Below the pieces are notes generated by a model. That model saw only the letters and a list, made by a program, of their open reading frames with translations, was not told where the DNA came from and made no database searches. The position numbers and the translations under genes were made by a program. DNA of 64,000 nucleotides from NCBI GenBank assembly GCA_036517395.1, contig DATDWN010000016.1, positions 11,262 to 75,261 of the forward strand. The letters run 5' to 3'. Each line of letters begins with the position of its first letter. The first letter of the stretch is position 1. The stretch is from Minisyncoccota bacterium (GTDB lineage Bacteria; Patescibacteriota; Minisyncoccia; Phycocordibacterales; DATDWN01). Shown piece after piece: positions 654 through 41,430 of this stretch.

Positions 654-2486
654 TTAAAGAAGTAGAACAAAAAATCGCCAAAAGGGTGTTTTTTTGTTAT
701 ATTGGTGATGTATTGGGGGATTAGTTAAGTGGTATAACAGCGCTCTCCAAAAGCACTGTCGGGAGTTCGATTCTTCCATCCCCCGCATTGTAGCGAATGA
801 AGTCTCAAAAGCTTCTTTTTGCCTTGTAGTATAGCCACGCTTTTTAGGTTCGAGCGAAGCAAAGAGGACTTTCTGAGACCGAAGTTCATTTTCAATGAGC
901 AAATACGGATGTATGCGTTCTATATTGAGCTTTTTATCTTTTAGAGTTAGGTTCGAGCCGATGGTAGAAAATATATTACGCTTCTTTTGAATGTCATCTG
1001 TAACAAAGTGTTTTAACGCAAATCTACAGAAATTAAATGTACGCTCTGTTGTCTCTATGGATTGGTCAAATTTTGTTTTTACTTCATTAAGTTCAGTTTC
1101 AATCGCTCCTCTCTCTTTTAACAACCCTCTTTTCTGTTCAAGATATTCGTCTGGTGTATATAACTCATGATTGATATTTTGAGGTGAAGTATATTCTCGA
1201 TGAAGATTTGCGATACGAGTTTGCACATTATCATAAGTGGCTTGCAGTGAGTCACGAATTCTTTTCTCTCCACTTGTAGAGTCATTTTGTTTTTCAGAAA
1301 GATAATCAAGAGCAACTCTTAGATATTCTTCGTCAATCGTTAGACCAGAAAGAACTTCGTTGAATTGTGTATCGAGGTCTTCAAGTTTTATGGACCTCTG
1401 AGTACAGGTTTTACATGGTCTCTTCGTGCAGTGAAAATAAGTGTAGTGAAGAATGGTGGGATTAATCATCTCTGATATATCTGTTTTACATTTTGCACAA
1501 GCAGTTCTGCCTTCATACGCAAATTTGTATTTACATTTTGTACAAATAATCTGATGTTTTTCTTCTGCTGTGATAGTTCCATTACATTCTCCGCACTTAA
1601 TAAGTCCTGTCGCATAGAAATTTCTAGTTTTTGGTTGAGGCTTACCTTGCCTTCCAAGAAGGACCTGTGCTCGCCAGAATTCTTTTTCCGTAATCATTGG
1701 CTGATGATTACCTTTGTATAATTCTTTTTCTCCGGTCTCATCATTCTTCCATTCAAAAGACCCATAGTAAAAAGGTTCTTTGAACATTTCATAAATCTGT
1801 GTACGACTTAATGGCTTACCACCAAGGCGTTTTCTTATTGTTGTTCTTAGCCCCCATTTGGTATTTGCTGTATCAAGGATTTTGGTCACTGAATATGTGC
1901 CTGTGAGAAACAGGTCCCACATTTTTCGGACAATTTCAAAATTTTTCTCATCGGGTACAATAATTTTTTCTCCTTTGTCGCCTTGATTTTTATAACCTAT
2001 TGGAGCAAGGCTTGGTCGCCAACCCTTTGCGACTCTTGAATTCAAGCCTCGCTTAACATTCTTAGAAAGTCTGACCACATAGTCGGTAGCACGACCACCT
2101 TCAATACTCATAAGAAGACCAGCATCTTCTGGATAGAATGAGCGACTTGGAGTTTTAATTACTTTTATGACAGATTTTTGGAGCATCCATTGTAACCGCC
2201 CATTATCAATCGGATTTCGAGATAAGCGGTCAATATCCCAACACAAAAGACCGTCTGCCTCGCCATTTTGAATACGATCTAGCATTTCATTAAAGACTTT
2301 TCGCCCAGGATCCTTTGCACTCTTTTCTTCAGTGAAAGGTGCTTTTGCTAGAAACAATTCTTCACGGTCTGCAATCTGTTTAAGAGCGTCTGTTTGGTCG
2401 CCAATAGATGCAACTTGCCGTTGAGAGTCTTCAGAACTTTTACGACAGTATACGAAGTATTTTATTTTAGTATTATCTTGGGTCAT
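654..2486 (-). CDS. large serine recombinase (resolvase catalytic domain + recombinase domain + zinc ribbon)
   Basis: N-terminus 'YFVYCRKSSEDSQRQVASIGDQ' is the serine-recombinase catalytic motif; downstream 'CGECNGTI...CTKCKYKF' is a Cys4 zinc ribbon; 610 aa. The ORF reads through tRNA-Trp on the opposite strand. Confidence 0.8.
   Translation of the reverse strand: MTQDNTKIKYFVYCRKSSEDSQRQVASIGDQTDALKQIADREELFLAKAPFTEEKSAKDPGRKVFNEMLDRIQNGEADGLLCWDIDRLSRNPIDNGRLQWMLQKSVIKVIKTPSRSFYPEDAGLLMSIEGGRATDYVVRLSKNVKRGLNSRVAKGWRPSLAPIGYKNQGDKGEKIIVPDEKNFEIVRKMWDLFLTGTYSVTKILDTANTKWGLRTTIRKRLGGKPLSRTQIYEMFKEPFYYGSFEWKNDETGEKELYKGNHQPMITEKEFWRAQVLLGRQGKPQPKTRNFYATGLIKCGECNGTITAEEKHQIICTKCKYKFAYEGRTACAKCKTDISEMINPTILHYTYFHCTKRPCKTCTQRSIKLEDLDTQFNEVLSGLTIDEEYLRVALDYLSEKQNDSTSGEKRIRDSLQATYDNVQTRIANLHREYTSPQNINHELYTPDEYLEQKRGLLKERGAIETELNEVKTKFDQSIETTERTFNFCRFALKHFVTDDIQKKRNIFSTIGSNLTLKDKKLNIERIHPYLLIENELRSQKVLFASLEPKKRGYTTRQKEAFETSFATMRGMEESNSRQCFWRALLYHLTNPPIHHQYNKKTPFWRFFVLLL
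715..785 (+). tRNA. tRNA-Trp (anticodon CCA)
   Basis: Hand-folded cloverleaf: acceptor GGGGGAT/ATCCCCC, D-stem GTTA/TAAC, anticodon loop CTCCAAA (CCA at 747-749), T-arm GGGAG-TTCGATT-CTTCC. One C-A mismatch in the anticodon stem; 3' CCA is not encoded. Confidence 0.75.
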
Positions 2487-2880
2487 AAAATATTTTACCT
2501 ATGTTCAGATTATTATTGTCGTCTTCGTACCCATGAATAATTACTTGTAGACCCGCTGTTTCACCTTTCAGGACTAGTCTCTTTATTTCCATGAGTTGAT
2601 TGAATTTATCCTTCCACATTTCTCCATATTGTTCACGCAAGACCCTTTTAACATTTTTTATATCGTCACTATCAACTACTGGTTTCCGACATTCAAAACA
2701 TTCAATTAATCCGCTTTCATTAATTTTGTAATAATGTGTATGTTTCTGACCCTCACAATTTTTTGAAACATACACATCCACATCTTCAACTGATTTTATT
2801 ATAGCTTTTTTCATATAATTTGTATTTAGTTTACTTGGTAATTTATCAATATAAGCAATATATGCTTGCCGAGTTACCAC
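2473..2880 (-). CDS. hypothetical protein (island)
   Basis: 135-aa ORF overlapping the recombinase start by 14 nt; no recognisable motif. Confidence 0.4.
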   Translation of the reverse strand: MVTRQAYIAYIDKLPSKLNTNYMKKAIIKSVEDVDVYVSKNCEGQKHTHYYKINESGLIECFECRKPVVDSDDIKNVKRVLREQYGEMWKDKFNQLMEIKRLVLKGETAGLQVIIHGYEDDNNNLNIGKIFYDPR

Positions 2881-2941
2881 CCTTTAGCCAAGAAGAAAGA
2901 AAGCCAATTCGGCAAAACGGCAACATATTTATTAACTACTA

Positions 2942-4051
2942 CTAAAATAATCCTTTTTCGTCTTCAACTAAGGGTTTTTCTTCTTCTCTTGGTAGAAAGT
3001 ACAGATTTTGCCTGCCTTGCTTAACACAATCAATCATTCCCTCGTTCACCAACTCTATAAGAGCCATCTGAACATTTTTTGTCCCTGCTGTCTTTTTTAA
3101 CATCTCAACCATCTCTCGTTTGGTTTTACTCCCATCAGGAAGAATGTCCAAAATCTTCTCTTTTGCTTCTTCTTTCTTATTCTCTTGGTCCTCAATCTCT
3201 CCACCATAAGTGAGTTCTGTTTTCACTATTTCGTCTTTAACATGGTCCCGTATAATCGTCTTAAAGGGGTTTATTTCCCTTGTGAGACGGTTTTTTCGCT
3301 GGTATACATCTATCTCTTCTCCTCCTGGTTCGCTCTTCAACATAAGCAGTATTTCCACAGAAGCAGTTTTATCTGTGCTTCCGAAGAGAAATTCTTTTTT
3401 TGGAACCTTGCCCTCAAAGTTGGATGGTTTTCTGAAATGGTCTAAGAAAACTACTGCAACACCCTTATCCTTTAAGATTTTAAGCCTATTAAAGAAGGTT
3501 CTAATTTCATCTGCTTTTTCTTCTTTTATTCCACCTGCAACTGCTCTGAATGTGTCTAGAAATACAACTTTAATATCATAGTAATCAATAACATTTAATA
3601 ACCAGTCAACCCCTCTATCTTCATTGAGGTCTAACTCTGTATCACTATAGACTAAAATCTTTTTGTTAGTTTCACTAAATCCTAATTGTTTTCCTCTTCG
3701 TTGTGCTTCACTTTGCGACATCTCCATGTCGACATAGAGAACATTTCCTGCTTCAGTTTTGAAATCTTTGTTACCAAGAAAATCAATTCCTAATGCGATA
3801 CAACGAGCCATCTCCATCGCAAACCAAGTTTTCTTTTCTCCTGTAACAGAAGCTAGTATGACAAAACCTTCATATGGAATGAGATTTTGGACCAACCATC
3901 TTTGTTTGGAAAATTCTTTATTATCTAGAGTTGTCCAATGCATAGGTTCAAAGAAATGTTTCTCAACTTTTCTTTCTGCTCTTTTATATCCTGCATCCAA
4001 ACCTCTTTCCATAGAAAAATCTTTGAATGTTTGGTTTCTATTTTCCTCCAT
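2942..4051 (-). CDS. RecA-like AAA_25 / RepA-type replication ATPase with C-terminal wHTH
   Basis: Walker-A-like 'SVTGEKKTW', 'YVDMEMSQSEAQRRGKQLGF' and 'VFLDTFR' motifs resemble plasmid/phage RepA-primase-associated ATPases; the C-terminus is wHTH-like. Confidence 0.55.
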   Translation of the reverse strand: MEENRNQTFKDFSMERGLDAGYKRAERKVEKHFFEPMHWTTLDNKEFSKQRWLVQNLIPYEGFVILASVTGEKKTWFAMEMARCIALGIDFLGNKDFKTEAGNVLYVDMEMSQSEAQRRGKQLGFSETNKKILVYSDTELDLNEDRGVDWLLNVIDYYDIKVVFLDTFRAVAGGIKEEKADEIRTFFNRLKILKDKGVAVVFLDHFRKPSNFEGKVPKKEFLFGSTDKTASVEILLMLKSEPGGEEIDVYQRKNRLTREINPFKTIIRDHVKDEIVKTELTYGGEIEDQENKKEEAKEKILDILPDGSKTKREMVEMLKKTAGTKNVQMALIELVNEGMIDCVKQGRQNLYFLPREEEKPLVEDEKGLF

Positions 4052-4220
4052 AATTTTTTGGGATTATTACCTCCTTTGGATTTAAGTGACTTGTTATTGT
4101 ACTAACGAGGCACACTAATTTTTCAAAATACTCAAGAGCCAACTCATCTGATAGAGTCGTTTTGTTTTTAAGCTCGTATAGCTTCCTTACCCTCTGGATG
4201 TACTTCGTTTTATCGACCAA
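4038..4220 (-). CDS. small hypothetical protein (possible excisionase/HTH-like)
   Basis: 60-aa ORF upstream of the ATPase gene. Confidence 0.25.
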   Translation of the reverse strand: MVDKTKYIQRVRKLYELKNKTTLSDELALEYFEKLVCLVSTITSHLNPKEVIIPKNYGGK

Positions 4221-4318
4221 AATAAAAACCCATTCCTAGTTTTGCGGACTACTTGGAGGTTATCCGCAAAACCCGAAATAGGTTAAAGGTTCTCCAAGTA
4301 CAAACACCTACAAAAACA

Positions 4319-4345
4319 ACCGCCTAAAGCGGTGTTTTCTTGCAC
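4319..4345. terminator. bidirectional hairpin (CCGCCTAAAGCGG) followed by a T-run on both strands
   Basis: Stem CCGC/GCGG with TGTTTTCTTG downstream on the + strand and TTGTTTTTG on the - strand. Confidence 0.35.
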
Positions 4346-4791
4346 ATTAATATCAAGTGACAAGAAGACAGTAGCTTTTTAGCTAAACTGAATTTGTCCC
4401 TAGTGAGGTGCCGGTAGCTAGTGCGATGGCGACTGGTATAGTCTTGGAGCCTGTGCTGATGCTGGTGGCTATGAGGGGTGTTTTCTAAACTGAAAATGAA
4501 TTAACCAAAGTATATATCTGTCAAAAAATAAGTCAATCCTATTATCCACCACCTTGAATAAAAGTAATTACTCTGACATGATTAAATTACAACTTAATAA
4601 AAAGTTGACCTAACCCCCATAGTTTTCTGTGGGATATGGTCAAAAACCGGTAAGAGACAAAGAACCCATCATATAGGGCTACTCTTACCGGTCCCTGCGG
4701 GAAACTGCAGGTGGAGGACCTCGGTCCTCACCTATGTGGTGGGCTTTTTGTGTCCAAAATACGAATTATTTTTATTATTAAATAAATTATT

Positions 4792-5013
4792 ATGTATAGT
4801 ATAAAACTACTTCTTGCTATGACTGTTTTTACTTTTTTAAGTTACATGGTTCTTCCTACACTTGTTAAAAAATTACGATTAAAAGACAGTGAAAAAATGA
4901 AGAATAGTTTACCAGTAACCGCAAATGCCAAAGCCGGGTTATTTATTTTAGCAGGAATTATTGGATTATTTTTTATTATTTATATCTTTGGCACAATACT
5001 AGGTTGGGACTAG
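4792..5013 (+). CDS. small membrane protein (2 TM)
   Basis: 73-aa hydrophobic ORF. Confidence 0.35.
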   Translation: MYSIKLLLAMTVFTFLSYMVLPTLVKKLRLKDSEKMKNSLPVTANAKAGLFILAGIIGLFFIIYIFGTILGWD

Positions 5014-5134
5014 TATTTAGTAGATCAAAAAATATTAAAATAATTGCTAGATAAATATTGACTTGTGTTTATATATATTGAGGAGTAACATATGAATACT
5101 TGATTATTAACAAATTACTAATAAAGATACACCT

Positions 5135-5635
5135 ATGTTTTGCGAACATTGTGGAACAAAAATAGAAGGAGGTGCTCAATTCTGCCAAAATTGTGGTAAG
5201 ACAACTTCGGGGACTACCAAAACCACTCCATCAACAAACCCAATTTCTGATCCAGCTGAGGTAAAAACTGAAGCAATAGTTAAATGTGGAAATTGTGATT
5301 ATGTCGGTCCTGGAGAACCAGCGAGATCACCAGGTGCGATTTTTCTAGCTTGGGTTTGTATTGTTATTGCATGGCCAATTACTGTCCTTTATTTTGCAAC
5401 AACTCATAAATATCGATGCCCAAAATGTAAATCAACATTTCTGGGAATTAAGGATAAAGAAGGAAAATTTACGGCTCCAAGTGGTGGTAATAAAAGTCCA
5501 GTAATGATACTTGTTTGGGTTCTTTTAGTAATAGCCATAATCGGCATTCTTTCGTCTGTTGTACTTGCTTCATTGAATACAGCTCGTGAAAAAGGAAGGC
5601 AAGCACAAGAACAAAGTTCAGGACAATATAAGTAA
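5135..5635 (+). CDS. zinc-ribbon domain membrane protein with pilin-like C-terminal helix
   Basis: N-terminal 'CEHCG...FCQNCG' double CxxCG ribbon; a second CxxC pair; C-terminal 'LLVIAIIGILSSVVLASLNTAREKGRQAQ' resembles a pilin/pseudopilin N-helix. Confidence 0.6.
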   Translation: MFCEHCGTKIEGGAQFCQNCGKTTSGTTKTTPSTNPISDPAEVKTEAIVKCGNCDYVGPGEPARSPGAIFLAWVCIVIAWPITVLYFATTHKYRCPKCKSTFLGIKDKEGKFTAPSGGNKSPVMILVWVLLVIAIIGILSSVVLASLNTAREKGRQAQEQSSGQYK

Positions 5636-5641
5636 AAGATT

Positions 5642-6547
5642 ATGTACTGTAAAAACTGTGGCACTAAATCAGATGGTATAAAAAAATTCTGCACTAAATG
5701 CGGTAAAGAATTCTCTAAATCTGACAACGCAAAAGAAAATACAAATTCAGCTCAATCAGCACCAAGCTTTTCACAGACTCCAAGCGAGTCCTCATGGAGT
5801 CCGGGGAGAATAATCGGCATAATTATTGTTCTAGCTTTTATTGGATGGAGTGTATATAGCTCTCAAGATGATGCTGTTGTTGAAAAGAATAACAATGCCA
5901 TAACAGCTTTCGACTCTGGAAATAGTGATCAAGCGATTACCCAATTCCAAGAAGCATCAAAAGATGCAGTGACAAATGATAATAAAATTAATACCTTAAA
6001 AAATCTTGCTTATGTATATTCTTCTAAGGGACAAAATGATTTAGCGATAAGTACATTCAAACAGGCTCTTGCGTTAACTTCAGGAGACTCCTTCGATTAC
6101 TATTTGATTGCTGGAGAAATTGCCATCCTTGAAAATAAGCCGAATTCAGCACAGATATCTTATAATAAAGCATACGAAAAAAACCCTAATGATTTTCAAA
6201 TCAACAATGCTCTCGCTCTTTTCTATCTTGATATAGAGGGTATTGCACCTCAATATGCTGATTATAAAAAAGCTGTTCAATATGCACTAAGAGCGACACA
6301 ACTTACTGATTTACAGTTAGCCAAGCAAAATCTTGGCTTAGCTTATTACTTTAATGAAAACTATCCTCAGGCAATATCGACTTTTAGTAATCTCACTTTG
6401 GACAAAGACTCAACTACTGCATATTGGTTAGGTTTGTCATATGCGAGAAATGGCGATCCGACAAATGCGAAATTTTATCTAAGGAAAGCTATCGCTAATG
6501 GGGTAGATGTACCTCAGGAGGTTTATGATTATATAAATTCAAATTAA
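5642..6547 (+). CDS. zinc-ribbon + TM + TPR-repeat protein
   Basis: N-terminal 'CKNCG...FCTKCG', one TM helix, then TPR-like repeats (LAYVYSSKGQ..., LGLSYARNGD...). Confidence 0.6.
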   Translation: MYCKNCGTKSDGIKKFCTKCGKEFSKSDNAKENTNSAQSAPSFSQTPSESSWSPGRIIGIIIVLAFIGWSVYSSQDDAVVEKNNNAITAFDSGNSDQAITQFQEASKDAVTNDNKINTLKNLAYVYSSKGQNDLAISTFKQALALTSGDSFDYYLIAGEIAILENKPNSAQISYNKAYEKNPNDFQINNALALFYLDIEGIAPQYADYKKAVQYALRATQLTDLQLAKQNLGLAYYFNENYPQAISTFSNLTLDKDSTTAYWLGLSYARNGDPTNAKFYLRKAIANGVDVPQEVYDYINSN

Positions 6548-6548
6548 T

Positions 6549-6941
6549 ATGTACTGCGAACATTGTGGAACAAAAATAGATAAGTCACATAAATTCTGTA
6601 CTAAATGTGGAAATGCAACTGACCCTGCACAAGTAAAGGCCACCGTGACACAACATCCTGTATTAGCACTTAATGACAAGTGGTGGCACCGACTCCTAAA
6701 AGTTTTATATATCATTGTATATTTTCCGTTGTTAGGTATTGTTCCAATGGTTTGGAGTTCAAATGTTCCATATTGCTATGCTTCTTATTCATGCTATGGC
6801 TCATATAGCGAGGCTTTTTGGTACTCAGTTCTCACTTTGGTTATTTATGTAGTGACAATTAGATTAATCAAGATTGCTGTTATATATGTGGCTTTTGGTC
6901 GAAAAGCTGAATGGAAAAAGGAGTTTAAGAAACCTTTCTAA
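6549..6941 (+). CDS. zinc-ribbon domain membrane protein
   Basis: N-terminal 'CEHCG...FCTKCG' followed by TM helices. Confidence 0.55.
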   Translation: MYCEHCGTKIDKSHKFCTKCGNATDPAQVKATVTQHPVLALNDKWWHRLLKVLYIIVYFPLLGIVPMVWSSNVPYCYASYSCYGSYSEAFWYSVLTLVIYVVTIRLIKIAVIYVAFGRKAEWKKEFKKPF

Positions 6942-6945
6942 ATTT

Positions 6946-7410
6946 ATGATCATTTTTGGTTGGGGATTTCAGACAATTAAAAACTTTGGTCCGGCTTTTA
7001 AGAACCTTTGTAGTCATTGTAATAATGAACAGTACTGGGTTCTGACGAGGATCATGACATGGTTTACATTATTTTTTATTCCGATATTTCCATATGAAAT
7101 TACATATCGCCTATCATGTCCTGTATGCAAATATGGACTTACATTAAACCAGAAGCAAGTCAGTGAGATAAAACCGCTTGCTGAGTTAAATCAACTACTT
7201 GTTGAAGGCCAAATCACTCAAGAAGAATATCAAGTTCGGCTAAATCGACTCAATGATGGACCTTCTGAACCAATTGAAGCAGAAATTGTAGAAACTAAGG
7301 CTTTAACTGAAAATGTATCCAGCCTGAGCTACTGTGCAAGCTGTGGGGGCAAGGTTACAGAAGAATTAAGGTTTTGTGGAAATTGTGGAACTCCTACTAC
7401 AACAAAATAA
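6946..7410 (+). CDS. membrane protein with C-terminal zinc ribbon
   Basis: ATG at 6946 directly after the previous stop (the track ORF starting at 6874 overlaps in another frame). C-terminal 'YCASCGG...FCGNCG'. Confidence 0.5.
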   Translation: MIIFGWGFQTIKNFGPAFKNLCSHCNNEQYWVLTRIMTWFTLFFIPIFPYEITYRLSCPVCKYGLTLNQKQVSEIKPLAELNQLLVEGQITQEEYQVRLNRLNDGPSEPIEAEIVETKALTENVSSLSYCASCGGKVTEELRFCGNCGTPTTTK

Positions 7411-7413
7411 TTT

Positions 7414-8361
7414 ATGTTTTGCAAAAATTGTGGCAATGAAATAAAACAAGGAATTAAATTTTGCACTAAATGTGGAAAAGAAAGTTTGCCTATCCAAATC
7501 CCTATTAAAACTAAGTATAAAATACTGTTAAAAAACAAACTGAAGAAATTTCATCAGTTTTTAACAAAGAAAAAATTGATTATTGGGTGGGTCACACTTA
7601 CCATCCTAGTTCTAGGTGCATACTTTATATATACAAAAGGAAAACATAAGATACCGACAGCTGATCAAATACAGAAAGATATTGCGTCTGTTGTTGTAAA
7701 TATCTATTGCGAAGGATCCAATGGGTGGGATGACGAAACTCAAATATCTGGTGGCTCAGGTACTATTATTACTACTGATGGTCTTGTACTTACAAATGCA
7801 CATATAATTCCGCAAGGTAAAGACGAAAGCCTTTACGATAAAAGTTGTTTAGTAAGCCTTCCCGATCCAACAACAGGAGCTTCAAAGGAAATATATTATG
7901 CGAGACCTATTGTGGTCCCAGATATAAGTGAGAAATATGACCTCGCTTTCCTACAAATAGATGATGTTTATTATGATGAAGCAGAAGATAAATTTTATGG
8001 TGAATACCCTAAAGTATTTCCTGCGTATGATGATGAAAAATATTGTAAGGCAGAGGATGTAAAGCTTGGTGAACCAGTTAGAATATATGGTTACCCTGCA
8101 ATAAGTGGTGGATATGCACTCACTATTACTGACGGTATAGTTAGTAGTCTACTCCCAAAATCTGGATACATTATAACTTCTGCAAAAATTAGTCATGGAA
8201 ATTCTGGTGGTCTTGCAGTTGATCAATATGGGTGCAGAATTGGAGTACCATCAATGGTTAGCGGTGATGATTATGAGAGTTTAGGGGTCATCATTTCAAA
8301 CAATCTTATATATGATTTCACGGAGGAAATAAGAACCATATTAAATACTACAGACAACTAA
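7414..8361 (+). CDS. zinc-ribbon + TM + trypsin-like (S1) serine protease domain protein
   Basis: N-terminal 'CKNCG...FCTKCG', TM, 'TDGLVLTNAHI' (His) and 'GNSGG' (Ser) S1 motifs. Confidence 0.65.
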   Translation: MFCKNCGNEIKQGIKFCTKCGKESLPIQIPIKTKYKILLKNKLKKFHQFLTKKKLIIGWVTLTILVLGAYFIYTKGKHKIPTADQIQKDIASVVVNIYCEGSNGWDDETQISGGSGTIITTDGLVLTNAHIIPQGKDESLYDKSCLVSLPDPTTGASKEIYYARPIVVPDISEKYDLAFLQIDDVYYDEAEDKFYGEYPKVFPAYDDEKYCKAEDVKLGEPVRIYGYPAISGGYALTITDGIVSSLLPKSGYIITSAKISHGNSGGLAVDQYGCRIGVPSMVSGDDYESLGVIISNNLIYDFTEEIRTILNTTDN

Positions 8362-9272
8362 TGAATAATTCTAATACTAAAGAACTTGTTATAGGAATAG
8401 TTATTTTAGTCATCTCAGCTTCAAGTCTGCTTATTAAAAGTATTCCTATTATATGGATCGGAGGTTTTATTTGGGGAGGTAGCATGATAGCTAAAGCATT
8501 AAATAACAAAAAACAATATTCTTTTCGGACCACAGAAATTGAAAAAGAAATAATAACATGTGATAACTGTAAACAAAAAATAAGAGTGCCAAAAGACAGA
8601 CAAAGATTTATCAATATTACTTGTCCCCATTGTAAAGAGAGTCCATTTTTGAGTTTATCTGATAGATTTCATAGAAGTCCTAGAAAAACAAAATTGCTTT
8701 GGATTGGAGGTCTAATTTTTGTAATCCTTGTATTTACATATGTGATATTCAAAAGTGGAAATTCTGTTACCACTCCACCTGTAACCCCAGTAGTCGCAAC
8801 CACAATAACACCTCAAAAGACTCAACAACCCTCAATAGTTCCAACCCCAACTAATATAGTTTCTTTTTCAAACGGAGAGTTTCTTACTAAAAATTCTTAC
8901 TATTTACAAGGATCAGGAAACTTAGAAATTAGAAATGGAACCAATAATAACGCAGTAGCGAAACTTGTGAGTACGGTTACAGACAAATCAGTGGCGACTG
9001 TCTATATTGGAGCAAATAACACTTACACCTTAAAAAATATTTCTAATGGAAGTTACAGATTGGTTTTTAACTTAGGTCACGATTGGGATACCATAAGTAA
9101 AAAGTTTACAAGAAATTCTAGCTACTCGGTTTTTGAGGAGAATTTCGACTATACAACAAGATCATCTAGCGATGGCTACTACTACCGAACATTTGAAGTT
9201 ACCCTAAACCCAGTTATTGGTGGGACAGCTGAAACTAATGATATAAACCAAGAAGAGTTTAGTGCTTACTAG
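8361..9272 (+). CDS. membrane protein with internal zinc ribbon (CDNC...CPHC) and Pro/Thr-rich linker
   Basis: TM helices, 'CDNCKQKIRVP...CPHCKE', PT-rich segment, C-terminal beta-rich domain. Confidence 0.5.
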   Translation: MNNSNTKELVIGIVILVISASSLLIKSIPIIWIGGFIWGGSMIAKALNNKKQYSFRTTEIEKEIITCDNCKQKIRVPKDRQRFINITCPHCKESPFLSLSDRFHRSPRKTKLLWIGGLIFVILVFTYVIFKSGNSVTTPPVTPVVATTITPQKTQQPSIVPTPTNIVSFSNGEFLTKNSYYLQGSGNLEIRNGTNNNAVAKLVSTVTDKSVATVYIGANNTYTLKNISNGSYRLVFNLGHDWDTISKKFTRNSSYSVFEENFDYTTRSSSDGYYYRTFEVTLNPVIGGTAETNDINQEEFSAY

Positions 9273-9339
9273 CCACACTCTCGGCCAGGACCATCCATTG
9301 GTCTAGGTAAGTCTTTAATGCTAAACTCAACTTATTACA

Positions 9340-10185
9340 ATGAAAAAATATTTCCTAATTATTATTTTAATAATACTAGTAATTCCATCCGTCACTTTTG
9401 CTTCTTGGTGGAACCCTTTCACTTGGAAAGTCCCTGTTAAAAATAAATCTTCCCAAACAGTACCAGCTCGGCTAGCCACTACGACTCAAGCTAAAAGTGA
9501 GATTGAAGAATTAAAAAATCAACTCAAATTAGAAAGTGAAAAACGCCAAGAATTAGAAAAGAAAATTCAAACTACAAAGGAAAGTCCAAAAACTAAGACC
9601 CAGACAGTTTCTCCGCAACCATCTACATCAGTCCAAAAACCAGTAGAACAAAAAACCTTCACTACACCCAGTGGTAGTGTTATAGACTCCAGTGGAAATG
9701 TAATATCAACACCTAAAATAGACCAGACACAAACAACCGTTCAGCCCACTAGCGACCCAACCATAGGTCCTCGCTATTATGACTCTAAAAAAACTTGTAT
9801 CGGTCTCTCAGGTAGTCAATACTCTGATTGTGTAAACTATGCATTTAGCCCTCAAGTGCAACAAAAAGAAACTCAGCAAAACACGCAACAAAGGACTACT
9901 CAAGGTGAGACGATGTCCTACACTGAGGGAGCTAGGGCGAGAGCACAACAGGATTTAGTTACAGAATATAATAATGCTAAAGCTTATATAGACCAACAAA
10001 TTATTGATATAAAAAATAAGTATTATTTAGACCTAGAACAGAATAACAACCGAGCAGTTCCAATGTCTTTTATAGAAGGAATGGCACAAAAATTACTTAC
10101 AGATGCAAATAATAAAATTAATAAACTTATACTTCAGCAACAACAATTACAGCTTGATTATCAAATAAAACTAAATAATTTATAG
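9340..10185 (+). CDS. secreted coiled-coil / Q-rich protein
   Basis: Signal peptide, 'EIEELKNQLKLESEKRQELEKK' coiled coil, Q/T-rich. Confidence 0.45.
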   Translation: MKKYFLIIILIILVIPSVTFASWWNPFTWKVPVKNKSSQTVPARLATTTQAKSEIEELKNQLKLESEKRQELEKKIQTTKESPKTKTQTVSPQPSTSVQKPVEQKTFTTPSGSVIDSSGNVISTPKIDQTQTTVQPTSDPTIGPRYYDSKKTCIGLSGSQYSDCVNYAFSPQVQQKETQQNTQQRTTQGETMSYTEGARARAQQDLVTEYNNAKAYIDQQIIDIKNKYYLDLEQNNNRAVPMSFIEGMAQKLLTDANNKINKLILQQQQLQLDYQIKLNNL

Positions 10186-10194
10186 ATACTGAAT

Positions 10195-10539
10195 ATGAAA
10201 AAATTAACTTTATTAATAGCATTATTCTGTTTCACTTTCTTTCCCTTAGTTTCTTTTGCTCACCCAGGAAGGACAGACTCATCAGGTTGCCACACCTGCA
10301 AGACTAATTGCCCTAATTGGGGGCTATCATATGGAGAGTATCATTGTCATAACTCCAAAGGCACTACCCAGCCCAAAGAGCCTATAAAGAGCACTTATGG
10401 GGCAAATGGGACCGGTTCCGTTTCTCCAGCTCCTGAGTATAAGACACCAAAGGTGGAGGCAGTTAAAACTAATACTCAAACAAGTGCGAAGACTGCAGAA
10501 AAAAGTAATTGGTTCACTCGATTATTTAGTTGGCTTTAA
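10195..10539 (+). CDS. small secreted Cys/His-rich protein
   Basis: Signal peptide; 'CHTCKTNCPNW...YHCH'. Confidence 0.45.
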   Translation: MKKLTLLIALFCFTFFPLVSFAHPGRTDSSGCHTCKTNCPNWGLSYGEYHCHNSKGTTQPKEPIKSTYGANGTGSVSPAPEYKTPKVEAVKTNTQTSAKTAEKSNWFTRLFSWL

Positions 10540-10796
10540 TAATTAATATGGAAAAGATAAAACAACAAAAATATGTAATTTTAATATCACTAATAATATT
10601 AGGGTTTGTTTTTTATTGGTTTGAATTAAGACCAAATAATATTAGAAAAGAGTGTATAAAAACTTATCCTGATGCTTTTAGAATACCGACTGATGATAAC
10701 GGTATTGGTCGTTTAATAAGTGTCGGTAACTATAAAGGTAGTATTGATAAAGCAGGTTATGAAAAATGTCTACGGGAAAATGGTTTAGATAGATAA
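10530..10796 (+). CDS. small membrane-anchored hypothetical protein
   Basis: 88-aa ORF with an N-terminal TM helix. Confidence 0.35.
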   Translation: MALIINMEKIKQQKYVILISLIILGFVFYWFELRPNNIRKECIKTYPDAFRIPTDDNGIGRLISVGNYKGSIDKAGYEKCLRENGLDR

Positions 10797-10802
10797 AATT
10801 AT

Positions 10803-11114
10803 ATGAGAATTAATAAAATATTATCAATAGTATCTGGAGTAATGCTTCTACTGGCAATTCCATCTATGTGGCCATATGGTTATTATCAATTACTTCGATG
10901 GGTAGTCTCAATAGTCGGAATTTCTAACGCTTATCAGACTTATAAATTAAATTCAAAAGGTTGGGCAATAACAATGGTAGTTATAGCTATTCTTTTTAAT
11001 CCCATAGAACCATTAATTTTCTCAAAAGGAACTTGGATTTTATTTGATTTAGCTACAGCTTTTATTATGTTTACGATGTCGTCTAAATTCAAAAATGAAG
11101 TAATAAAAAATTAA
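10803..11114 (+). CDS. small membrane protein
   Basis: 103 aa, 3 predicted TM helices. Confidence 0.4.
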   Translation: MRINKILSIVSGVMLLLAIPSMWPYGYYQLLRWVVSIVGISNAYQTYKLNSKGWAITMVVIAILFNPIEPLIFSKGTWILFDLATAFIMFTMSSKFKNEVIKN

Positions 11115-11119
11115 TTAAT

Positions 11120-11305
11120 ATGAGAAACTTAATAGCACTTATATCTACAGAAGGAAAGTCTCCGGAACAAATTAAAAAAGAGACAGTTTTGGCATTTCAA
11201 AAATATCAGGAAGTAAAAAGCCAAGTTGAAAAGCAATTAAAAGAAACCCAAAAGGAAGTGAGATCACAGATAGTCTTTATTCCGAAGTTTGTCCCAAAAA
11301 AATAG
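11120..11305 (+). CDS. small charged hypothetical protein
   Basis: 61-aa K/E-rich ORF. Confidence 0.3.
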   Translation: MRNLIALISTEGKSPEQIKKETVLAFQKYQEVKSQVEKQLKETQKEVRSQIVFIPKFVPKK

Positions 11306-11595
11306 GATTTTAGAAAGAGTCGTCATTCATAGATGTCTGTACATCAAAATGAACTTTTACCTCCTAAAAACTCTTCTAAAATGCTGTATTACTTCAAAAA
11401 TGTGGATAACTTGACCTTTTTATGTATGTGGAATAGTATAATGAACCTACACGAATGTACCGTGCTCTATAATTCCTTACGGTACACATACACAAATAAT
11501 TATGTTTTCTTGCCACTTTTTTCTGATAAAGAGAAAAAAGTCTGCGGTCTCCGTGAGGAGCTCTTTTTTATTATATAAAATTTCGGCGTAAGATG

Positions 11596-11698
11596 TGAGC
11601 TGGATAGGACTCGAACCTATATCATGACCTTAGAATGGTCAGCCCTGGGGAGGGTATAGTTTTCAAGACTACTGTTCTATCCATTGAACTACCAGCCC
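11596..11698 (-). tRNA. atypical tRNA, anticodon UGA (Ser-like) with extra hairpin; ~103 nt
   Basis: Reverse complement folds: acceptor GGGCTGG/CCAGCTC, D-arm GTTC-AATGGATA-GAAC, anticodon arm GTAGT-CTTGAAA-ACTAT, variable hairpin CCCT-CCCC-AGGG, an additional TGACC-ATTCTAA-GGTCA hairpin, T-arm ATAGG-TTCGAGT-CCTAT. Confidence 0.55.
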
Positions 11699-12757
11699 AC
11701 ATCCTACTCCAAAATTTGGAGTAGAGAAAAACCAATTAAAGTTTTTTCTTTTTATCAGAAGTGCCTTTCTTCTTTGCGGGAGGGGGCATTTTCTGTTTTT
11801 CCTCGTCAACTTCAAAACAAAACGCTCTCAGACCTTTTTCCCATGCATAAAGTATTTTTCCGTTACGCAAAGTAATAAAAGGTCTACATATGAGTGTAGC
11901 CACTTTATTTTATCTATCTGTATCCTAATAATGCCTTTGCTCTTTAGGCGAGCCGTTACGGCTGACACAATTTTCCGTTGGTATAGTTTAGATTACTTAT
12001 TATATAGCTAATCTTATAAACCCAACTCGGCTTTTTGCTTTAGGAACGATTTAGTGGACAGCACTCTGGGAGTTACCCCTCAAGTTTACACCTGGGAAAG
12101 TTTCCTTCCCCAAAATGCTTTCCACCAAATCTTTCAAAAAACATCTTGTCGAGTGCTGTCCACCAATGACTTATTCATCGGTACCATAATTATACTACAT
12201 ACAGTTTTCATTGCAAATAAAATTTCAATATAAAGTTGTGGACAGCCCAAAAAATCAGAAAAATAAAAAATAGATTTTGACTAATCTGTTTTTATAGAAA
12301 AGCTTGGGTAGGGTATGTACCCCCCCACCCCAAAAACACCCTTTATTGCATGGGATGACCTATTGGCGGTATTTCCTCACCACCCCCTGCCAAAGTCGGG
12401 GGTAGATGCACCTCCACCCCCTGGACCATATACGAAGCTTGGAGCGTGTTATGTTAAGATTGGTACATAAAACATTGTGTTTTGGCTCTCATACCAAGTT
12501 CTAACAGCCTCAACAGTGTTCCGCATATACGACGAACCCCACGCGCTCAGCTTACGCGTGGGGACAGGCTGGTAGCTCTCAGGAGAACAGTGATACTACC
12601 AACCATCGAAGAAGGAACGGGAAACCGAAGACGATCACTATGGTCATGATGACCATGCCAAGCAGTAGGGCTTGGCCGTCATGCTCAGTGCAAGACTCGG
12701 GACTGGTCACAATTACCCTCCACTATTCTTTTTACTACAAAACCAATTTTTAATCAA

Positions 12758-12788
12758 CCCTGTAGTGAGTTTCGCTCTACTACGGGGC
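12758..12788. repeat. family B (CCCTGTAGT...ACTACGGGG) element, short copy upstream of miaA
   Basis: CCCTGTAGTGAGTTTCGCTCTACTACGGGG. Confidence 0.6.
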
Positions 12789-12809
12789 AAGGAATCTCTT
12801 AATTTCTCT

Positions 12810-13694
12810 CTAAATCCTAGTTATTTCACCAGGTTTAAACCATTTTATTCTTTTGTCTCTCTTAAACCAGACCATTTGGCGTTTGGCATAGTGCCAGATT
12901 TCGGTTTCGAGTTTTTTGATAAAGTTTTCTTTCGTAATTTTCTTTTCCATAAAATCGGCGAGATATCTATACTCCAAACCAAGCTCTCTCATACGTTTCC
13001 AAGATAGGCCGTTTTTATGTAGATTTTTTGCCTCGGTTATCATGCCTGCTCTAATTCGCGCGAATAGGCGAACATGTATTCTCTTTTTTAATTCTTTATC
13101 AGGCAACCTCAATCCTATTTGTAAAAATTTGTAAGGATTTTCACCCATTTTTATTTCCGGAGTTCTGCCTAGTGCTGTTGCAATTTCAATGGCTCGTATT
13201 AGTCTCACAGGGTTTTTAATATCAATATTTGAAAATCGTCTTGGGTCTAATTTAACCAAGATTGTTTGTAATTCCGCCAAACCTTTTTTCTCTAATTTTT
13301 TTCGCAATACTTTATTTGGTGGTACTTCTGGTAGGATAACATTTTCAACTATTGATTGAATATAAAATCCAGTGCCCCCACAGATTATGGGCAGTTTGCC
13401 TCGAGAGATTATGTTTTTAATTATTTTTTCCGTTTTTTCCTTCCATTCGCTTACCGTAAAAACTTTTTTTGGCGATACTATGTCTAGCATATGGTGGGGA
13501 ACACCTCGCATCTCTTTTTTCGTAATTTTTCCCGTACCGATATCCAAATCTTTGTAAACCTGTCTCGAATCAGCAGAAATCACCTCGCCCTTATATTTTC
13601 GAGCGAGTTTTACAGCCAAACCGCTCTTGCCCGTGGCTGTTGGGCCAAGAATTACAAGAATTTTAGAACTATTTTTGCTTGATTTTTCTCTCAT
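12810..13694 (-). CDS. miaA: tRNA dimethylallyltransferase
   Basis: P-loop 'GPTATGKSGLAVKLA', 'ISADSRQVYKDLDIGTGK', 'VPHHMLD'. Confidence 0.9.
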   Translation of the reverse strand: MREKSSKNSSKILVILGPTATGKSGLAVKLARKYKGEVISADSRQVYKDLDIGTGKITKKEMRGVPHHMLDIVSPKKVFTVSEWKEKTEKIIKNIISRGKLPIICGGTGFYIQSIVENVILPEVPPNKVLRKKLEKKGLAELQTILVKLDPRRFSNIDIKNPVRLIRAIEIATALGRTPEIKMGENPYKFLQIGLRLPDKELKKRIHVRLFARIRAGMITEAKNLHKNGLSWKRMRELGLEYRYLADFMEKKITKENFIKKLETEIWHYAKRQMVWFKRDKRIKWFKPGEITRI

Positions 13695-13715
13695 TTCCGT
13701 TATTATACATTACAT

Positions 13716-13801
13716 GTCGGAGTGGCGGAACGGTAGACGCGATGGACTCAAAATCCATTGATGGCAACATCATGAGAGTTCAAGTCTCTCCTCCGACACC
13801 A
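13716..13801 (+). tRNA. tRNA-Leu (anticodon CAA), class II
   Basis: Acceptor GTCGGAG/CTCCGAC, anticodon arm ATGGA-CTCAAAA-TCCAT, long variable arm TGATGGCAACATCATGA, T-arm GAGAG-TTCAAGT-CTCTC, CCA encoded. Confidence 0.8.
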
Positions 13802-13807
13802 GTTTAA

Positions 13808-15160
13808 TTAATCCAAGACTTTTATATTTGCTCCAATAGCGTTTAGTCTTTCAGCTATATTTTCATATCCGCGTTTTATGGAATACACATTGCGCAAAGT
13901 GGATTCTCCCTTAGCACCGAGCATCGCAACCAAAATCATCGTTGCTGGGCGTAGAGCGGGGGGACACACAAGATCATTTCCCTTCAGATCTGTTGGCCCC
14001 TGGACAAAAACTCTATGTTGATCAGCTAAAACAATATTTGCGCCAAGGTGATTTAACTCGGTAAAATAAATTGCCCGATTTTCCCACATCCAATCATGAA
14101 TCAGTGTCGTGCCGTTAGTCGCTGTAGCAATAGGCACAAAAAACGGCAAATTATCACTGTTAATTCCAGGATATGCCGAGGCGTGGATTTTTTCGCCTAA
14201 AGCTTGGAGTAGGGAAGGGTGGATCGTGATGTCGCACAAACGAGTTCGGCCGTTTTGAGCGAAATATATTTCTGATTTTTCATAATTTAGTCCCATTTTC
14301 TCAAGTTTCAAAAGTTCAAGGGATAAAAAGTCAATCGGGCATCGTGTTATAGACAACGTGGAGCCTGTGACAATAGCGGCAGAAATAAACATCATTGATT
14401 CTGTCGGGTCTTCGCTGTTGAAATACTCTATGGGTTTGTTTATCTCCTTTATTCCATGGACTACAAGAGTCGATGTGCCAATTCCGTCAATTATTACTCC
14501 GCATTTTTCCAAGAAAAAACAAACCTCTTGGACTTGGTAGTTCGGTGGGGTAAATCGCAAAGTGGTTTGGCTGGGAATCAATGCTGAAGTCAAAAGAAGA
14601 TTTTCTGTAGCGGTGTCTGAGGCTTCGTAGAGGACAATGTCCGCTGGTTTCAATTTATTACAGGAAATTTCGTAATAGGATTCTTTTGTCAAAATTTTTA
14701 CACCCAATGATTCCAAACCATATTTGTGAGCGGCAATAGTTCGCTGTCCCATTTTACATCCGCCGGCGTGTGGTAGGCTAAATTTTTTCTCGAAATGTAT
14801 TAAAGCTCCGATTCCCATTATTATTGAACGGATTCTACTAGATGCCTTACTGTTTATTTTTTCAATATGAAACTTTTTGGGTGGAGTAATTCTAACAGAG
14901 TTTTTTCCAATCCATTCCACTTTTACTCCTATGCTTTCAAATATTTCTATAATACGAAATATTTCCTCTATGCGAGGAATACCATGCAGTATGGTCTCTG
15001 CTTTATTCAGAAGTGATGCACAAAACAGTCCCATGGCACCGTTTTTGGAAGTGTTTGTCTGTATCGTGCCAGAAAGTTTCCTCCCTCCGACTATCTTGAA
15101 ATTGTCAGTTTCGCTTGTTGTTTTTTCCATCAGGCGGATTATAGCATATCGATTATGCAT
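13808..15160 (-). CDS. murA: UDP-N-acetylglucosamine 1-carboxyvinyltransferase
   Basis: Whole-length similarity to MurA, e.g. 'RVFVQGPTDLKGNDLVCPPALRPATMILVAML...', 'IKRGYENIAERLNAIGANI'. Confidence 0.9.
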   Translation of the reverse strand: MHNRYAIIRLMEKTTSETDNFKIVGGRKLSGTIQTNTSKNGAMGLFCASLLNKAETILHGIPRIEEIFRIIEIFESIGVKVEWIGKNSVRITPPKKFHIEKINSKASSRIRSIIMGIGALIHFEKKFSLPHAGGCKMGQRTIAAHKYGLESLGVKILTKESYYEISCNKLKPADIVLYEASDTATENLLLTSALIPSQTTLRFTPPNYQVQEVCFFLEKCGVIIDGIGTSTLVVHGIKEINKPIEYFNSEDPTESMMFISAAIVTGSTLSITRCPIDFLSLELLKLEKMGLNYEKSEIYFAQNGRTRLCDITIHPSLLQALGEKIHASAYPGINSDNLPFFVPIATATNGTTLIHDWMWENRAIYFTELNHLGANIVLADQHRVFVQGPTDLKGNDLVCPPALRPATMILVAMLGAKGESTLRNVYSIKRGYENIAERLNAIGANIKVLD

Positions 15161-20198: not shown

Positions 20199-20350
20199 TT
20201 TATCTGCGACGAGAGAGGAGCGCGTGAATGTGTAATCACATTCACAGCGTCCGAACGAGGAGTAGCAATGGTAAAAACCCCGCCCCTCTGGGGCGGAACA
20301 GGGGTCCAGGGCTTGCCCTGGGGTTTCATACCATTGATTAAAAACAATTG
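20199..20350. repeat. 140-bp structured repeat (family C), copy 1, between topA and dprA
   Basis: Near-identical to 42403-42540; hairpins GTGAATGTG-TAAT-CACATTCAC, GCCCC-TCTG-GGGGC, CCAGGGC-TT-GCCCTGG; carries the SD and mini-ORF. Confidence 0.8.
20267..20350 (+). CDS. 27-aa mini-ORF (MVKTPPLWGGTGVQGLPWGFIPLIKNN) inside the 140-bp repeat, perfect SD
   Basis: GAGGAG 5 nt upstream of the ATG. A second copy at 42471 differs by a synonymous CCC/CCA change. Confidence 0.4.
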
Positions 20351-38716: not shown

Positions 38717-38804
38717 AATTTACAATTATCAATTTACAATTTCCAATCAATTCTCAATGTTCCAATGATTCAATTTGAAAATTGAGAACTGAAAATTGAA
38801 AATT
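38717..38804. repeat. ~88-bp AT-rich repeat (family D) abutting the apbE ATG
   Basis: ...CAATTCTCAATGTTCCAATGATTCAATTTGAAAATTGAGAACTGAAAATTGAAAATT-ATG; ~95% identical to 41342-41430. Confidence 0.75.
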
Positions 38805-39671
38805 ATGCAATTCGATGCTATTGGTACTCACTGGCAGATAGATATAAATGAAGAGGTGGAGGAGTCAAAAGTCCATAAAGTCAGAAAGTCTATAAAGGAG
38901 AGAATAGATATTTTTGACAAAGACTACTCGCGTTTTCGTGATGACTCGCTGGTGACGAAGATGTCACATGAGTCCGGTGGTTTTGTCTTGCCAAGTGATG
39001 CGGATAAAATGGTTTCTCTTTATAAAAAAATGTACGATATCACGGGTGGGCTTGTCACGCCTCTCATAGGTCAAGCCATATCAGACGCTGGATATGATGC
39101 AAAATATTCTCTCTCACCAAAACCTATGACCAAAGCACCCAAGTGGGAGGATGTTTTAATTTGGCATAACCCCAAACTTATGCTTTCAAAACCTGTCCTT
39201 CTTGATTTTGGTGCTTGTGGCAAGGGTTATCTAGTAGATATAGTTTCTGAAATATTAGAAGGTATTGGAATCAAATCCTACTGCGTTGATGCTGGGGGTG
39301 ACATGAGATGTAGAAGCGCAAAAGTTAAAAGTGAAAAGTTAAAAGTAGGGTTGGAGAATCCAAATAATAAAGAAGAGGTGATTGGTGTCATAAATCTAGG
39401 GAATCAAAGCTTATGTGGTTCCAGCGGCAACAGGAGGACGTGGGCAAATTTTCACCACATCATAAACCCAGAAACACTTACTTCACCTCGTGAAATTTCA
39501 GCTGTCTGGGTAGTGGCAGACGAAACTATCAAAGCCGACATCCTAACCACAGGACTTTTCTTTGTTTCTCCCGAAACTCTCTTAAAACATTTTGATTTTC
39601 AGTATCTTATTCTATATCCCGACTTTTCCATCAAAAAATCCGATGGATTTGATGCGAAAATATTTACGTAA
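38805..39671 (+). CDS. apbE: FAD:protein FMN transferase (ApbE family)
   Basis: 'FDKDYSRFRDDS', 'LDFGACGKGYLVD', 'DAGGDM' ApbE motifs; ATG at 38805 (the track start at 38796 is TTG). Confidence 0.75.
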   Translation: MQFDAIGTHWQIDINEEVEESKVHKVRKSIKERIDIFDKDYSRFRDDSLVTKMSHESGGFVLPSDADKMVSLYKKMYDITGGLVTPLIGQAISDAGYDAKYSLSPKPMTKAPKWEDVLIWHNPKLMLSKPVLLDFGACGKGYLVDIVSEILEGIGIKSYCVDAGGDMRCRSAKVKSEKLKVGLENPNNKEEVIGVINLGNQSLCGSSGNRRTWANFHHIINPETLTSPREISAVWVVADETIKADILTTGLFFVSPETLLKHFDFQYLILYPDFSIKKSDGFDAKIFT

Positions 39672-41341: not shown

Positions 41342-41430
41342 GAATTTTCAATTATCAATTTACAATTTTCAATCAATTCTCAATGTTCCAATGATTCAAT
41401 TTGAAAATTGAGAACTGAAAATTGAAAATT
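41342..41430. repeat. ~88-bp AT-rich repeat (family D) abutting the msrA ATG
   Basis: Near-identical to 38717-38804. Confidence 0.75.

Follow-up and report, generated by a model that had tools for sequence, protein, structure and literature searches.

Large serine integrases, as known from phages and integrative and conjugative elements (ICEs), for example phiC31, Bxb1, SPbeta, A118 and TP901-1, are encoded at one end of their element, and their attB and attP attachment sites have only a few bp in common. Serine integrases were not known to target tRNA genes (Islander 2015), and tRNA targeting by a serine integrase, seen in 14 of 297 cases among TIGER calls, was stated to be previously unreported and to need proof (Mageeney 2020, PMC7192596). 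An attP within the integrase coding sequence is known from Mx8 (IntP/IntX) and SSV1, where the int gene of the prophage carries a different 3' end after integration and regains its original one on excision, and SSV1 integrates into a tRNA gene (PMC6070905, PMC4383910, PMC8371274); in Mx8 the new 3' end made by integration alters the properties of the enzyme (PMC6070905). Among the tycheposons, 27 of 937 carry a large serine recombinase and 97% carry tyrosine recombinases (preprint 10.1101/2020.12.28.424599). The locus described here lies in a 64-kb stretch of contig DATDWN010000016.1 from a Minisyncoccota bacterium, which is called the window below; element coordinates are positions in it, L0xx are retrieved contigs or loci, and P0054 is a recombinase homologue that bears the conserved C-terminal tail described below. 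Positions 789-12526 of the window are very probably one integrative element of a candidate phyla radiation (CPR) host, belonging to a family whose attP lies inside the recombinase gene. It is a serine-integrase element with three unusual traits, namely a tRNA or transfer-messenger RNA (tmRNA) target, an attP in its own open reading frame (ORF) and linkage to the LOOT RNA.

The features at the two ends of the element are as follows.

489-665, + strand: rpmG, host flank upstream of tRNA-Trp
654-782, - strand: non-native C-terminal extension of the recombinase, codons 569-610 plus stop, running antisense across tRNA-Trp, the spacer and the rpmG 3' end
715-786, + strand: tRNA-Trp(CCA), the target gene (ARAGORN; Rfam tRNA model 56.8 bits, full length)
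783-788: attL core CCGCAT
789-2486, - strand: body of the large serine recombinase, codons 1-566 (Pfam domains, homologues, structure model)
12449-12520, - strand: separated 3' exon of the recombinase gene (NTVEAVRTWYESQNTMFYVPILT, 23 codons, then a stop), which continues the reading frame of the body through the core
12521-12526: attR core CCGCAT, the same 6 bp as in attL
12537-12563, + strand: host hairpin CCCCACGCG...CGCGTGGGG, which adjoins tRNA-Trp in the empty site and is shifted 11.7 kb by the insertion
12810-13694, - strand: miaA, host flank past the right end

Both alleles of this locus were located in public assemblies through exact lookup of the rpmG protein. Two contigs carry the empty site, L061 (JGI 3300002502) and L062 (Logan SRR2090155), in which the order is rpmG, tRNA-Trp, 0.3 kb and miaA without interruption, and both are 100% identical to positions 1-788 joined to 12521-14201. 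Because these contigs join the two flanks directly, the insert spans 789-12526 and measures 11,738 bp when the empty and filled alleles are aligned. Their alignments to the window overlap by 6 bp, CCGCAT (783-788 = 12521-12526), inside which the crossover must fall; this core takes in the final two bases of the acceptor stem of tRNA-Trp, its discriminator G and three bases of the trailer. The filled allele is present in contigs L057, L058 and L064, which are 100% identical to the window. Three further contigs (L059, L063 and L065) terminate at 786-788, as is expected of an assembler when two alleles coexist; one of them, L059, shares its JGI sample with L061, which has the empty site. The tRNA-Trp gene is intact in both alleles, with the same sequence through 788 in the empty-site contigs. 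Insertion or removal is precise at the 6-bp core, at the 3' extremity of tRNA-Trp, and leaves the tRNA sequence unaltered. In composition the island also differs from its surroundings, with a GC content of 0.355 against 0.416 in the remainder of the window and at least 0.390 in every other 11.7-kb segment. MurA, encoded in the host flank, is 79-81% identical to proteins of metagenome-assembled genomes (MAGs) of Minisyncoccia, Zambryskibacteria and Parcubacteria, and by its sequence the host is a Patescibacteria (CPR) bacterium.

An earlier note on this DNA, made from the letters alone, had proposed a genomic island at 0.7-12.8 kb, integrated at the tRNA 3' end. The island is real and its insertion point is the one proposed, at 789 next to the tRNA-Trp extremity, whereas its ends lie at 789 and 12526 and not at 654 and 12800. 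The LOOT RNA, the splitting of the recombinase gene and the existence of a large family had escaped that note. The uninterrupted tRNA-Trp-miaA site and the shift in composition that the note had suggested looking for were both found, the former with 100% identical flanks. A direct repeat of the tRNA-Trp 3' end, which it had also envisaged, comes down to the shared CCGCAT, since nothing longer than 6 bp was recovered by a repeat search with 10-nt seeds or by a 25-mer search allowing 3 mismatches. A serine recombinase requires only a 2-bp overlap, and the absence of a long repeat of the tRNA end therefore fits this type of enzyme. Like the islands of the Islander type, the insert is absent from an otherwise identical site, its integrase is tRNA-proximal and the tRNA is intact; unlike them, it shows no displaced tRNA fragment of tens of bp, and its integrase is a serine and not a tyrosine enzyme.

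The right end of the element holds the missing part of the recombinase gene. In the integrated state the recombinase ORF (654-2486, - strand) is 610 aa long, and its last 42 codons run antisense through tRNA-Trp, as far as the earlier note had seen it, and on into the 3' end of rpmG; codons 567-568 (Met-Arg) are encoded by the core CCGCAT itself. When the two ends of the island were joined in silico, the frame ...SFATMR, with MR from the core, ran into 12520-12452 on the - strand and then reached a stop, giving a reconstructed recombinase of 591 aa that ends in NTVEAVRTWYESQNTMFYVPILT. The predicted attP of the window element contains ...CAACAGTGTTCCGCATTGTAGCGAATG.... A hidden Markov model (HMM) made from the tails of 15 other proteins was run against all six reading frames of the window and scored the exon at 12449-12520 best, with E = 0.004, the second-best match having 0.3. 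The same model detected orphan tail exons at the distal end of 11 further integrated elements, always uninterrupted and on the strand of the recombinase, and the tail motif TVEA[VI]RTW...[FY]VP is free of stops and frameshifts in every orphan exon. Moreover, joining body and tail across a shared core of 5-10 bp gave an in-frame ORF in nine of the nine other integrated loci tested, for which chance would give one in three per locus; these loci sit at tRNA-Asn, tRNA-Ser and tRNA-Lys, and each core holds 4-8 nt of the tRNA 3' end. The HMM match and the nine in-frame reconstructions place attP within the recombinase gene, 23 codons before its stop, across the CPR subfamily. The 42-residue read-through is junk produced by integration and is not native protein. 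The earlier note had allowed that the extension of the ORF through the tRNA might be a frame artefact; it is instead the residue of a gene cut 23 codons before its true stop.

This arrangement is like that of Mx8 IntP/IntX and the SSV1 integrase in that attP is within the integrase coding sequence. Mx8, whose integration target is tRNA-Asp, and SSV1 differ from the window family in using viral tyrosine recombinases, and the SSV1 int gene is split into two large halves, whereas the serine recombinase of the window loses only a conserved tail of 23 residues and its element is without virion genes. The split is a property of the CPR subfamily and not of the whole wider clade, because the distant tailed relatives L069 and L070 have no tRNA nearby; they do not fit the split-gene model and are regarded as a more distant state. 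In addition, three Bacteroidota relatives that are 27-30% identical, L041 (a Tenacibaculum xiamenense isolate), L043 (Polaribacter) and L047, keep the tail motif as ...LRT[FSY][IL]...IIP in an intact gene whose end lies at no tRNA, and the tail thus predates the tRNA-splitting arrangement.

The enzyme is a bona fide large serine recombinase. Pfam recognises Resolvase (PF00239, 1.1e-19, residues 11-155) and Recombinase (PF07508, 2.4e-9) in the window protein, and Zn_ribbon_recom (PF13408) weakly (0.0056), the latter being precomputed in most homologues, with invariant cysteines. R15, K16 and S17 are invariant in 31 homologues, and the catalytic domain of PDB 3g13 is matched at 6e-7. The AlphaFold2 model of the tailed homologue P0054 (mean predicted local distance difference test score, pLDDT, of 83) has the full serine-integrase layout with coiled-coil helices at 384-430 and 443-492, and its full-length Foldseek matches are the integrases of SPbeta, phiC31, Bxb1 and A118 (1.7e-19 to 1.9e-11). 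This model places the crossover midway along a C-terminal helix (residues 550-578) that is predicted with confidence. The window enzyme shares with the phage and ICE serine integrases the catalytic domain, the alpha-E helix, the recombinase domain and the zinc ribbon with an inserted coiled coil, as well as the position of the gene at one end of the element and the few bp common to attB and attP (6 bp between the junctions of the window element, 5-10 bp in relatives). It differs from them in that its family targets the 3' ends of tRNA and tmRNA genes, has attP inside its own ORF and carries an extra C-terminal helix after the zinc-ribbon domain. Furthermore, it is at most 26% identical to any recombinase in phage or plasmid records, as tblastn against 50,697 phage records and 72,556 plasmid records gave no closer relative.

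Scoring of 8000 candidates gave 2160 relatives at E <= 0.001, with a modal length of 567-570 aa. The top 120 homologues are 52-98% identical, and their named sources are almost all Parcubacteria-type MAGs, one being labelled Deltaproteobacteria. Their alignments end at about residue 565 of the query, exactly at the tRNA start. About 65 of the 120 have C-termini of the type ...WLRG, ...MRRR or similar; 32 of the 120 extend into ...DSNL, ...DSNSR or ...GSNL, which is the antisense translation of the T loop (GATTCGAAC), with W being TGG, antisense to CCA, and has its equivalent in EESNSR of the window extension; and about 12 bear the conserved tail, as in ...WLR-TVEAVRTWIADYKGDYYVPELV. Of 56 loci of recombinase homologues from GTDB genomes, about 30 have a tRNA or tmRNA gene in antisense overlap with the 3' end of the ORF, with tRNA-Asn as the most frequent target, followed in no particular order by Ser, Gln, Lys, Pro, Arg, Glu, Val, Leu and tmRNA. 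The cases of overlap include relatives in Verrucomicrobiota and Melainabacteria that are 30-42% identical.

The recombinase is joined in the element by a replication module and an RNA gene.

2473-2880, - strand: ORF135, which overlaps the recombinase start, has no Pfam match and is poorly conserved
2942-4051, - strand: AAA_25 (RepA/DnaB-like) ATPase (Pfam AAA_25, 1.5e-29), with a weak C-terminal winged-helix match
4038-4220, - strand: ORF60, small conserved protein heading the string ORF60-helicase-recombinase
4221-4606: control region between the replication/integration module and LOOT, with a 22-nt inverted repeat at 4227-4284
4607-4729, + strand: LOOT RNA gene (RF03000; Rfam 71.8 bits against a gathering threshold of 46.4; model positions 1-121)

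The AAA_25 ATPase and the small ORFs had been recognised in the earlier note, and the present annotation agrees with it. Against PHROG, the ATPase matches helicase and primase-helicase families (2.9e-27 to 3e-6), and it is presumed to be the replicative helicase of the element. When the island proteins were compared by BLASTP with 12 delimited related elements, the recombinase was conserved in all 12, ORF60 in 10, the AAA_25 protein in nine and ORF135 in two; the ORFs of the conserved module are all intact in the window. Because ORF60, helicase, ORF135 and recombinase overlap or abut, they probably form one operon that starts within 4221-4606, and 4198-4336 is 72% identical to the equivalent region of L010. 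ORF60 and ORF135 have no Pfam match even at E <= 5, and ORF60 has none in PHROG. ORF60 is a candidate regulator or directionality factor and ORF135 a candidate directionality factor.

LOOT is directly followed by a terminator-like hairpin (4727-4743) and CTTTTTG. An Rfam scan of eight loci found it in the matching relative position in all eight, and our own model, built from these copies, gave 23 matches in about 1.0 Mb of loci, almost all of them 0.3-1.1 kb upstream of the replication genes of an element; not one match lay far from such an element. It diverges from the replication genes in the majority of loci but shares their strand in L012, L027 and L066, the genes around the L027 copy not having been identified. 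The neighbouring gene is of three kinds across the family, since AAA_25 is fused to Prim-Pol in L012 and is replaced by an HUH rolling-circle Rep in the second L010 element, where LOOT likewise lies upstream of the Rep. As almost all of its matches lie upstream of replication genes and none lies far from such an element, LOOT is a component of the element family and belongs to the control region of its replication module. No published function or genomic context for LOOT was found, and LOOT goes undiscussed in the main text of Weinberg et al. (2017, PMC5737381). In the searchable literature, which excludes most subscription journals, we found neither a report of an attP inside a serine integrase gene nor a paper on an element context for LOOT or on large serine recombinases, tRNA genes and CPR bacteria together.

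The family is thus a large set of elements of 6-12 kb, with a serine recombinase, a replication module with LOOT upstream, and variable cargo. By description it is like the Prochlorococcus tycheposons, which are small tRNA-integrating elements with an integrase, replication genes (primase/helicase) and niche cargo; the tycheposons differ in having cyanobacterial hosts, and no split integrase or LOOT is reported from them. It is also like the actinomycete ICEs (AICEs; pSAM2) and the archaeal pT26-2 and pSSVi, which combine an integrase with a replication initiator and occur either inserted at a tRNA gene or free as circles, and the HUH Rep of the second L010 element resembles that of pSAM2. These integrative plasmids use tyrosine integrases, and AICEs also have FtsK-like transfer genes; unlike AICEs, the window element has no transfer gene that could be found.

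A free form of the element is known from a relative. The recombinase P0054 is encoded on contigs L066 and L067, which come from one sample but from different assemblers and are 100% identical circular permutations; their terminal repeats (55 bp and 30 bp) give a circle of 9,957 bp in both. Encoded on this circle are the recombinase in intact, tailed form, LOOT and, by Pfam, an AAA_25 protein of 639 aa, and ORF60 is present in the circular episome as well. Contigs L071, L072 and L073 yielded no further circular relative, being without terminal repeats. Tailed ORFs are also regenerated in tandem arrays, which pair two different elements at a single tRNA and were seen in L010 (11735-18081), L011 (541-2253) and L072. 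The second element of L010 carries restriction-modification (R-M)-like genes and its own LOOT besides the HUH (pSAM2-like) Rep, and its recombinase is a shorter serine enzyme of 486 aa that overlaps tRNA-Gln. The target tRNA of L011 was missed by ARAGORN, and the next ORF is HNH-like by its C-terminal motif alone, which would fit the group I introns reported in tRNA-Asn genes of Patescibacteria (PMC13011429).

Integration thus leaves codons 1-568 at the tRNA junction, reading into the antisense tRNA up to a chance stop, and carries the conserved tail exon to the far junction; rejoining of the ends restores the full-length gene in frame. Beyond this, the following course may be proposed. The recombinase itself would catalyse the exchange between attP and attB, with a 2-bp crossover within CCGCAT. 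In the integrated state, transcription of the tRNA may run antisense into the recombinase gene, because the hairpin at 12537-12563 has been moved 11.7 kb away from tRNA-Trp. The excised circle would replicate using the helicase module, and LOOT, judged by its neighbourhood, would act in replication or in its control. By analogy with Mx8, the swap of the C-terminal helix would alter the activity, direction or stability of the enzyme between the free and the integrated state. Going further, we tentatively assume that the self-cutting gene could be a state switch, in which only the circle makes the tailed enzyme that integrates, the integrated element makes a tail-less enzyme with a random tRNA-antisense extension that differs in activity, direction or stability, and LOOT controls or primes the replicon; this is a possibility that we ourselves regard as rather unlikely.

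Several observations weigh against the reading as an integrative element with a functional tail swap. The attP 23-mer of the window element had no match in JGI contigs, the exact 591-aa protein is absent from a collection of 15 billion proteins, and excision of the window copy is deduced from the allele polymorphism alone. Neither attB nor attP showed clear dyad symmetry, the best score of 13 of 25 positions being uninformative. No directionality factor was identified, the candidates ORF60 and ORF135 being without family match, and the functions proposed for the tail swap, LOOT and ORF60 are predictions from position and conservation. The distant tailed relatives L069 and L070 (55-57% identity) lie on chromosome-size contigs with no tRNA within 10 kb. 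The missing attP junction and the junk tail of the integrated ORF could also be read as signs of a fixed, decaying remnant, with the empty site a chance deletion or assembly artefact and the tail exon a coincidence; this is extremely improbable, as two independent assemblies (JGI and Logan) show the same exact junction at the 6-bp core with 100% identical flanks, the ORFs of the conserved module are intact, a circular relative exists, and the tail exon is the top HMM match in 64 kb, in frame, in a pattern repeated in nine of nine other loci. A further question is whether the element is real and the C-terminal swap nevertheless neutral, with the overlap of attP incidental and LOOT a passenger or the leader of a cargo gene. 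The tails are 26-65% identical to that of the window against 55-69% for the bodies, the junk tails vary in length without apparent constraint and the orientation of LOOT is variable, all of which would agree with such neutrality. Against it stand the retention of the tail motif in every orphan exon and even in the Bacteroidota relatives, the place of the tail in a confidently predicted helix, and the constancy of LOOT beside three kinds of replication gene, so that we consider this explanation doubtful, though a possible one.

The element could also be a prophage or a satellite of a phage, such as a virus of about 12 kb that has a membrane envelope and no capsid, its cargo then being virion or entry proteins. 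A size of 6-12 kb together with an integrase, a replication protein and small membrane proteins does resemble the pleomorphic membrane viruses, and a free circular form is known in a relative. Pfam found no relaxase, coupling protein or type IV secretion system family among the 17 island ORFs, which speaks for a virus, counts against the integrative-element reading and sets the element apart from ICEs and integrative mobilisable elements. No island ORF matched a capsid, terminase, tail or lysis family in Pfam, and PHROG gave no such match in the 10 ORFs scanned; the seven cargo ORFs among the scanned set had no structural, packaging or lysis match, and the only PHROG matches were to helicases. 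Moreover, a scan of IMG/VR returned a single distant relative at 35% identity, the cargo varies between family members, which is not expected of virion genes, and that of relatives includes R-M genes, a zeta toxin and a GIY-YIG nuclease. A viral nature is thus improbable, and the integrative element of a CPR host is preferred.

The remainder of this element consists of cargo and of several RNA or repeat features near the right end.

4792-11578, + strand: cargo of 13 co-directional ORFs (Pfam; scan for transmembrane segments and CxxC motifs)
11596-11698, - strand: atypical tRNA-like gene (Rfam tRNA 61.2 bits, with a 32-nt insertion)
12041-12170, - strand: candidate structured RNA in which a 16-bp stem encloses 3-4 hairpins, located some 285 nt 3' of the stop of the tail exon
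12311-12420: three degenerate 21-nt direct repeats (GGGTAKRTRCMCCYCCACCCC-like, GGGTATGTACCCCCCCACCCC-like), from a repeat search

The zinc-ribbon and membrane proteins noted earlier as cargo were found as described. Six of the 13 cargo ORFs have CxxC...CxxC zinc ribbons and 10 have transmembrane-like segments; zinc-ribbon/transmembrane ORFs begin at 5135, 5642 (with TPR), 6549, 6874 and 7414 (with a trypsin-like protease), and the others include secreted or membrane proteins and DUF6804. The cargo is only sporadically common to related elements. The 71-nt 5' ends of four consecutive cargo genes (5134-5204, 5641-5711, 6548-6618 and 7413-7483) are 70-72% identical and encode an N-terminal zinc ribbon, MxCxxCG...FCxxCG; by sequence these genes look like tandemly expanded paralogues with differing extracellular parts (TPR, trypsin-like protease and others). 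Such membrane and secreted proteins would change the cell surface of the host, and the cargo presumably does so.

The atypical tRNA and the gene-free stretch before miaA, both reported in the earlier note, are present, and they lie inside the element (the stretch mostly) and not beyond it. The tRNA-like gene has canonical acceptor, D and T arms around a central segment of about 51 nt, in which two hairpins resemble anticodon arms (loops CUUGAAA and AUUCUAA) and a small third one pairs CCCU with AGGG. A tRNA-Phe with a 19-nt intron was proposed by ARAGORN in intron mode only and is unconvincing, and no counterpart was reported inside the related elements of eight Rfam-scanned loci. From this gene to miaA there is no convincing protein-coding gene, only short unsupported ORFs; one ORF of 55 aa (MATLICRPFITLRNGKILYAWEKGLRAFCFEV..., with a lysine-rich tail) lies at 11736-11903 (- strand) and has no Pfam match even at E <= 5. 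In the candidate structured RNA, a block of about 120 bp is 90% identical to L022 (5911-6030 within 5902-6033), whose recombinase is only 58% identical to that of the window. For the - strand the fold has a minimum free energy of -55.2 kcal/mol and a z of -6.1, while the + strand gives z = -2.9; one base pair shows a compensatory change. The RNA belongs to no Rfam family, and neither our own covariance model, run on 932 kb of loci, nor a pattern scan of JGI metagenomes turned up a third copy. A further GTGGACAGC word occurs at 12238-12246. The three 21-nt repeats are spaced by 56 and 33 nt, sit inside the tail-exon end at 100-210 bp from the crossover, and could be protein-binding sites or iterons.

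Outside the island, a second serine recombinase gene of at least 430 aa was seen in L057 (1-908), about 9 kb upstream of window position 1; it has Resolvase, Recombinase and Zn ribbon domains, adjoins a GIY-YIG gene and lies upstream of rbfA-infB. The host chromosome also contains dispersed repeats of 90-140 bp that are 85-99% identical (20199-20338 = 42402-42541; 38717-38806 = 41343-41432; 42537-42677 ~ 43262-43401; 46494-46547 ~ 60783-60837), some of which recur in L057 upstream of the window; they had no Rfam match at gathering thresholds.

Serine integrases were long thought not to use tRNA genes, and the family described here has more than 2,000 database relatives (E <= 0.001), of which nearly all of the 120 closest sit at tRNA or tmRNA 3' ends. 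Since serine integrases are workhorses of genome engineering, the many natural attB/attP pairs that the family offers in conserved targets are of practical interest as well. The position of attP in the integrase's own gene leads to a testable hypothesis of state-dependent control of a serine integrase, and LOOT gains a genomic home beside replication genes, which makes its function experimentally approachable. If the proposed switch were true, directionality would be set by gene topology instead of, or besides, a separate directionality factor, which would be a new mode of serine-integrase control and would give LOOT its first function. For the CPR bacteria, whose mobile elements and genetic tools are poorly known, the family is a common, small and episome-capable vehicle of surface-protein genes.

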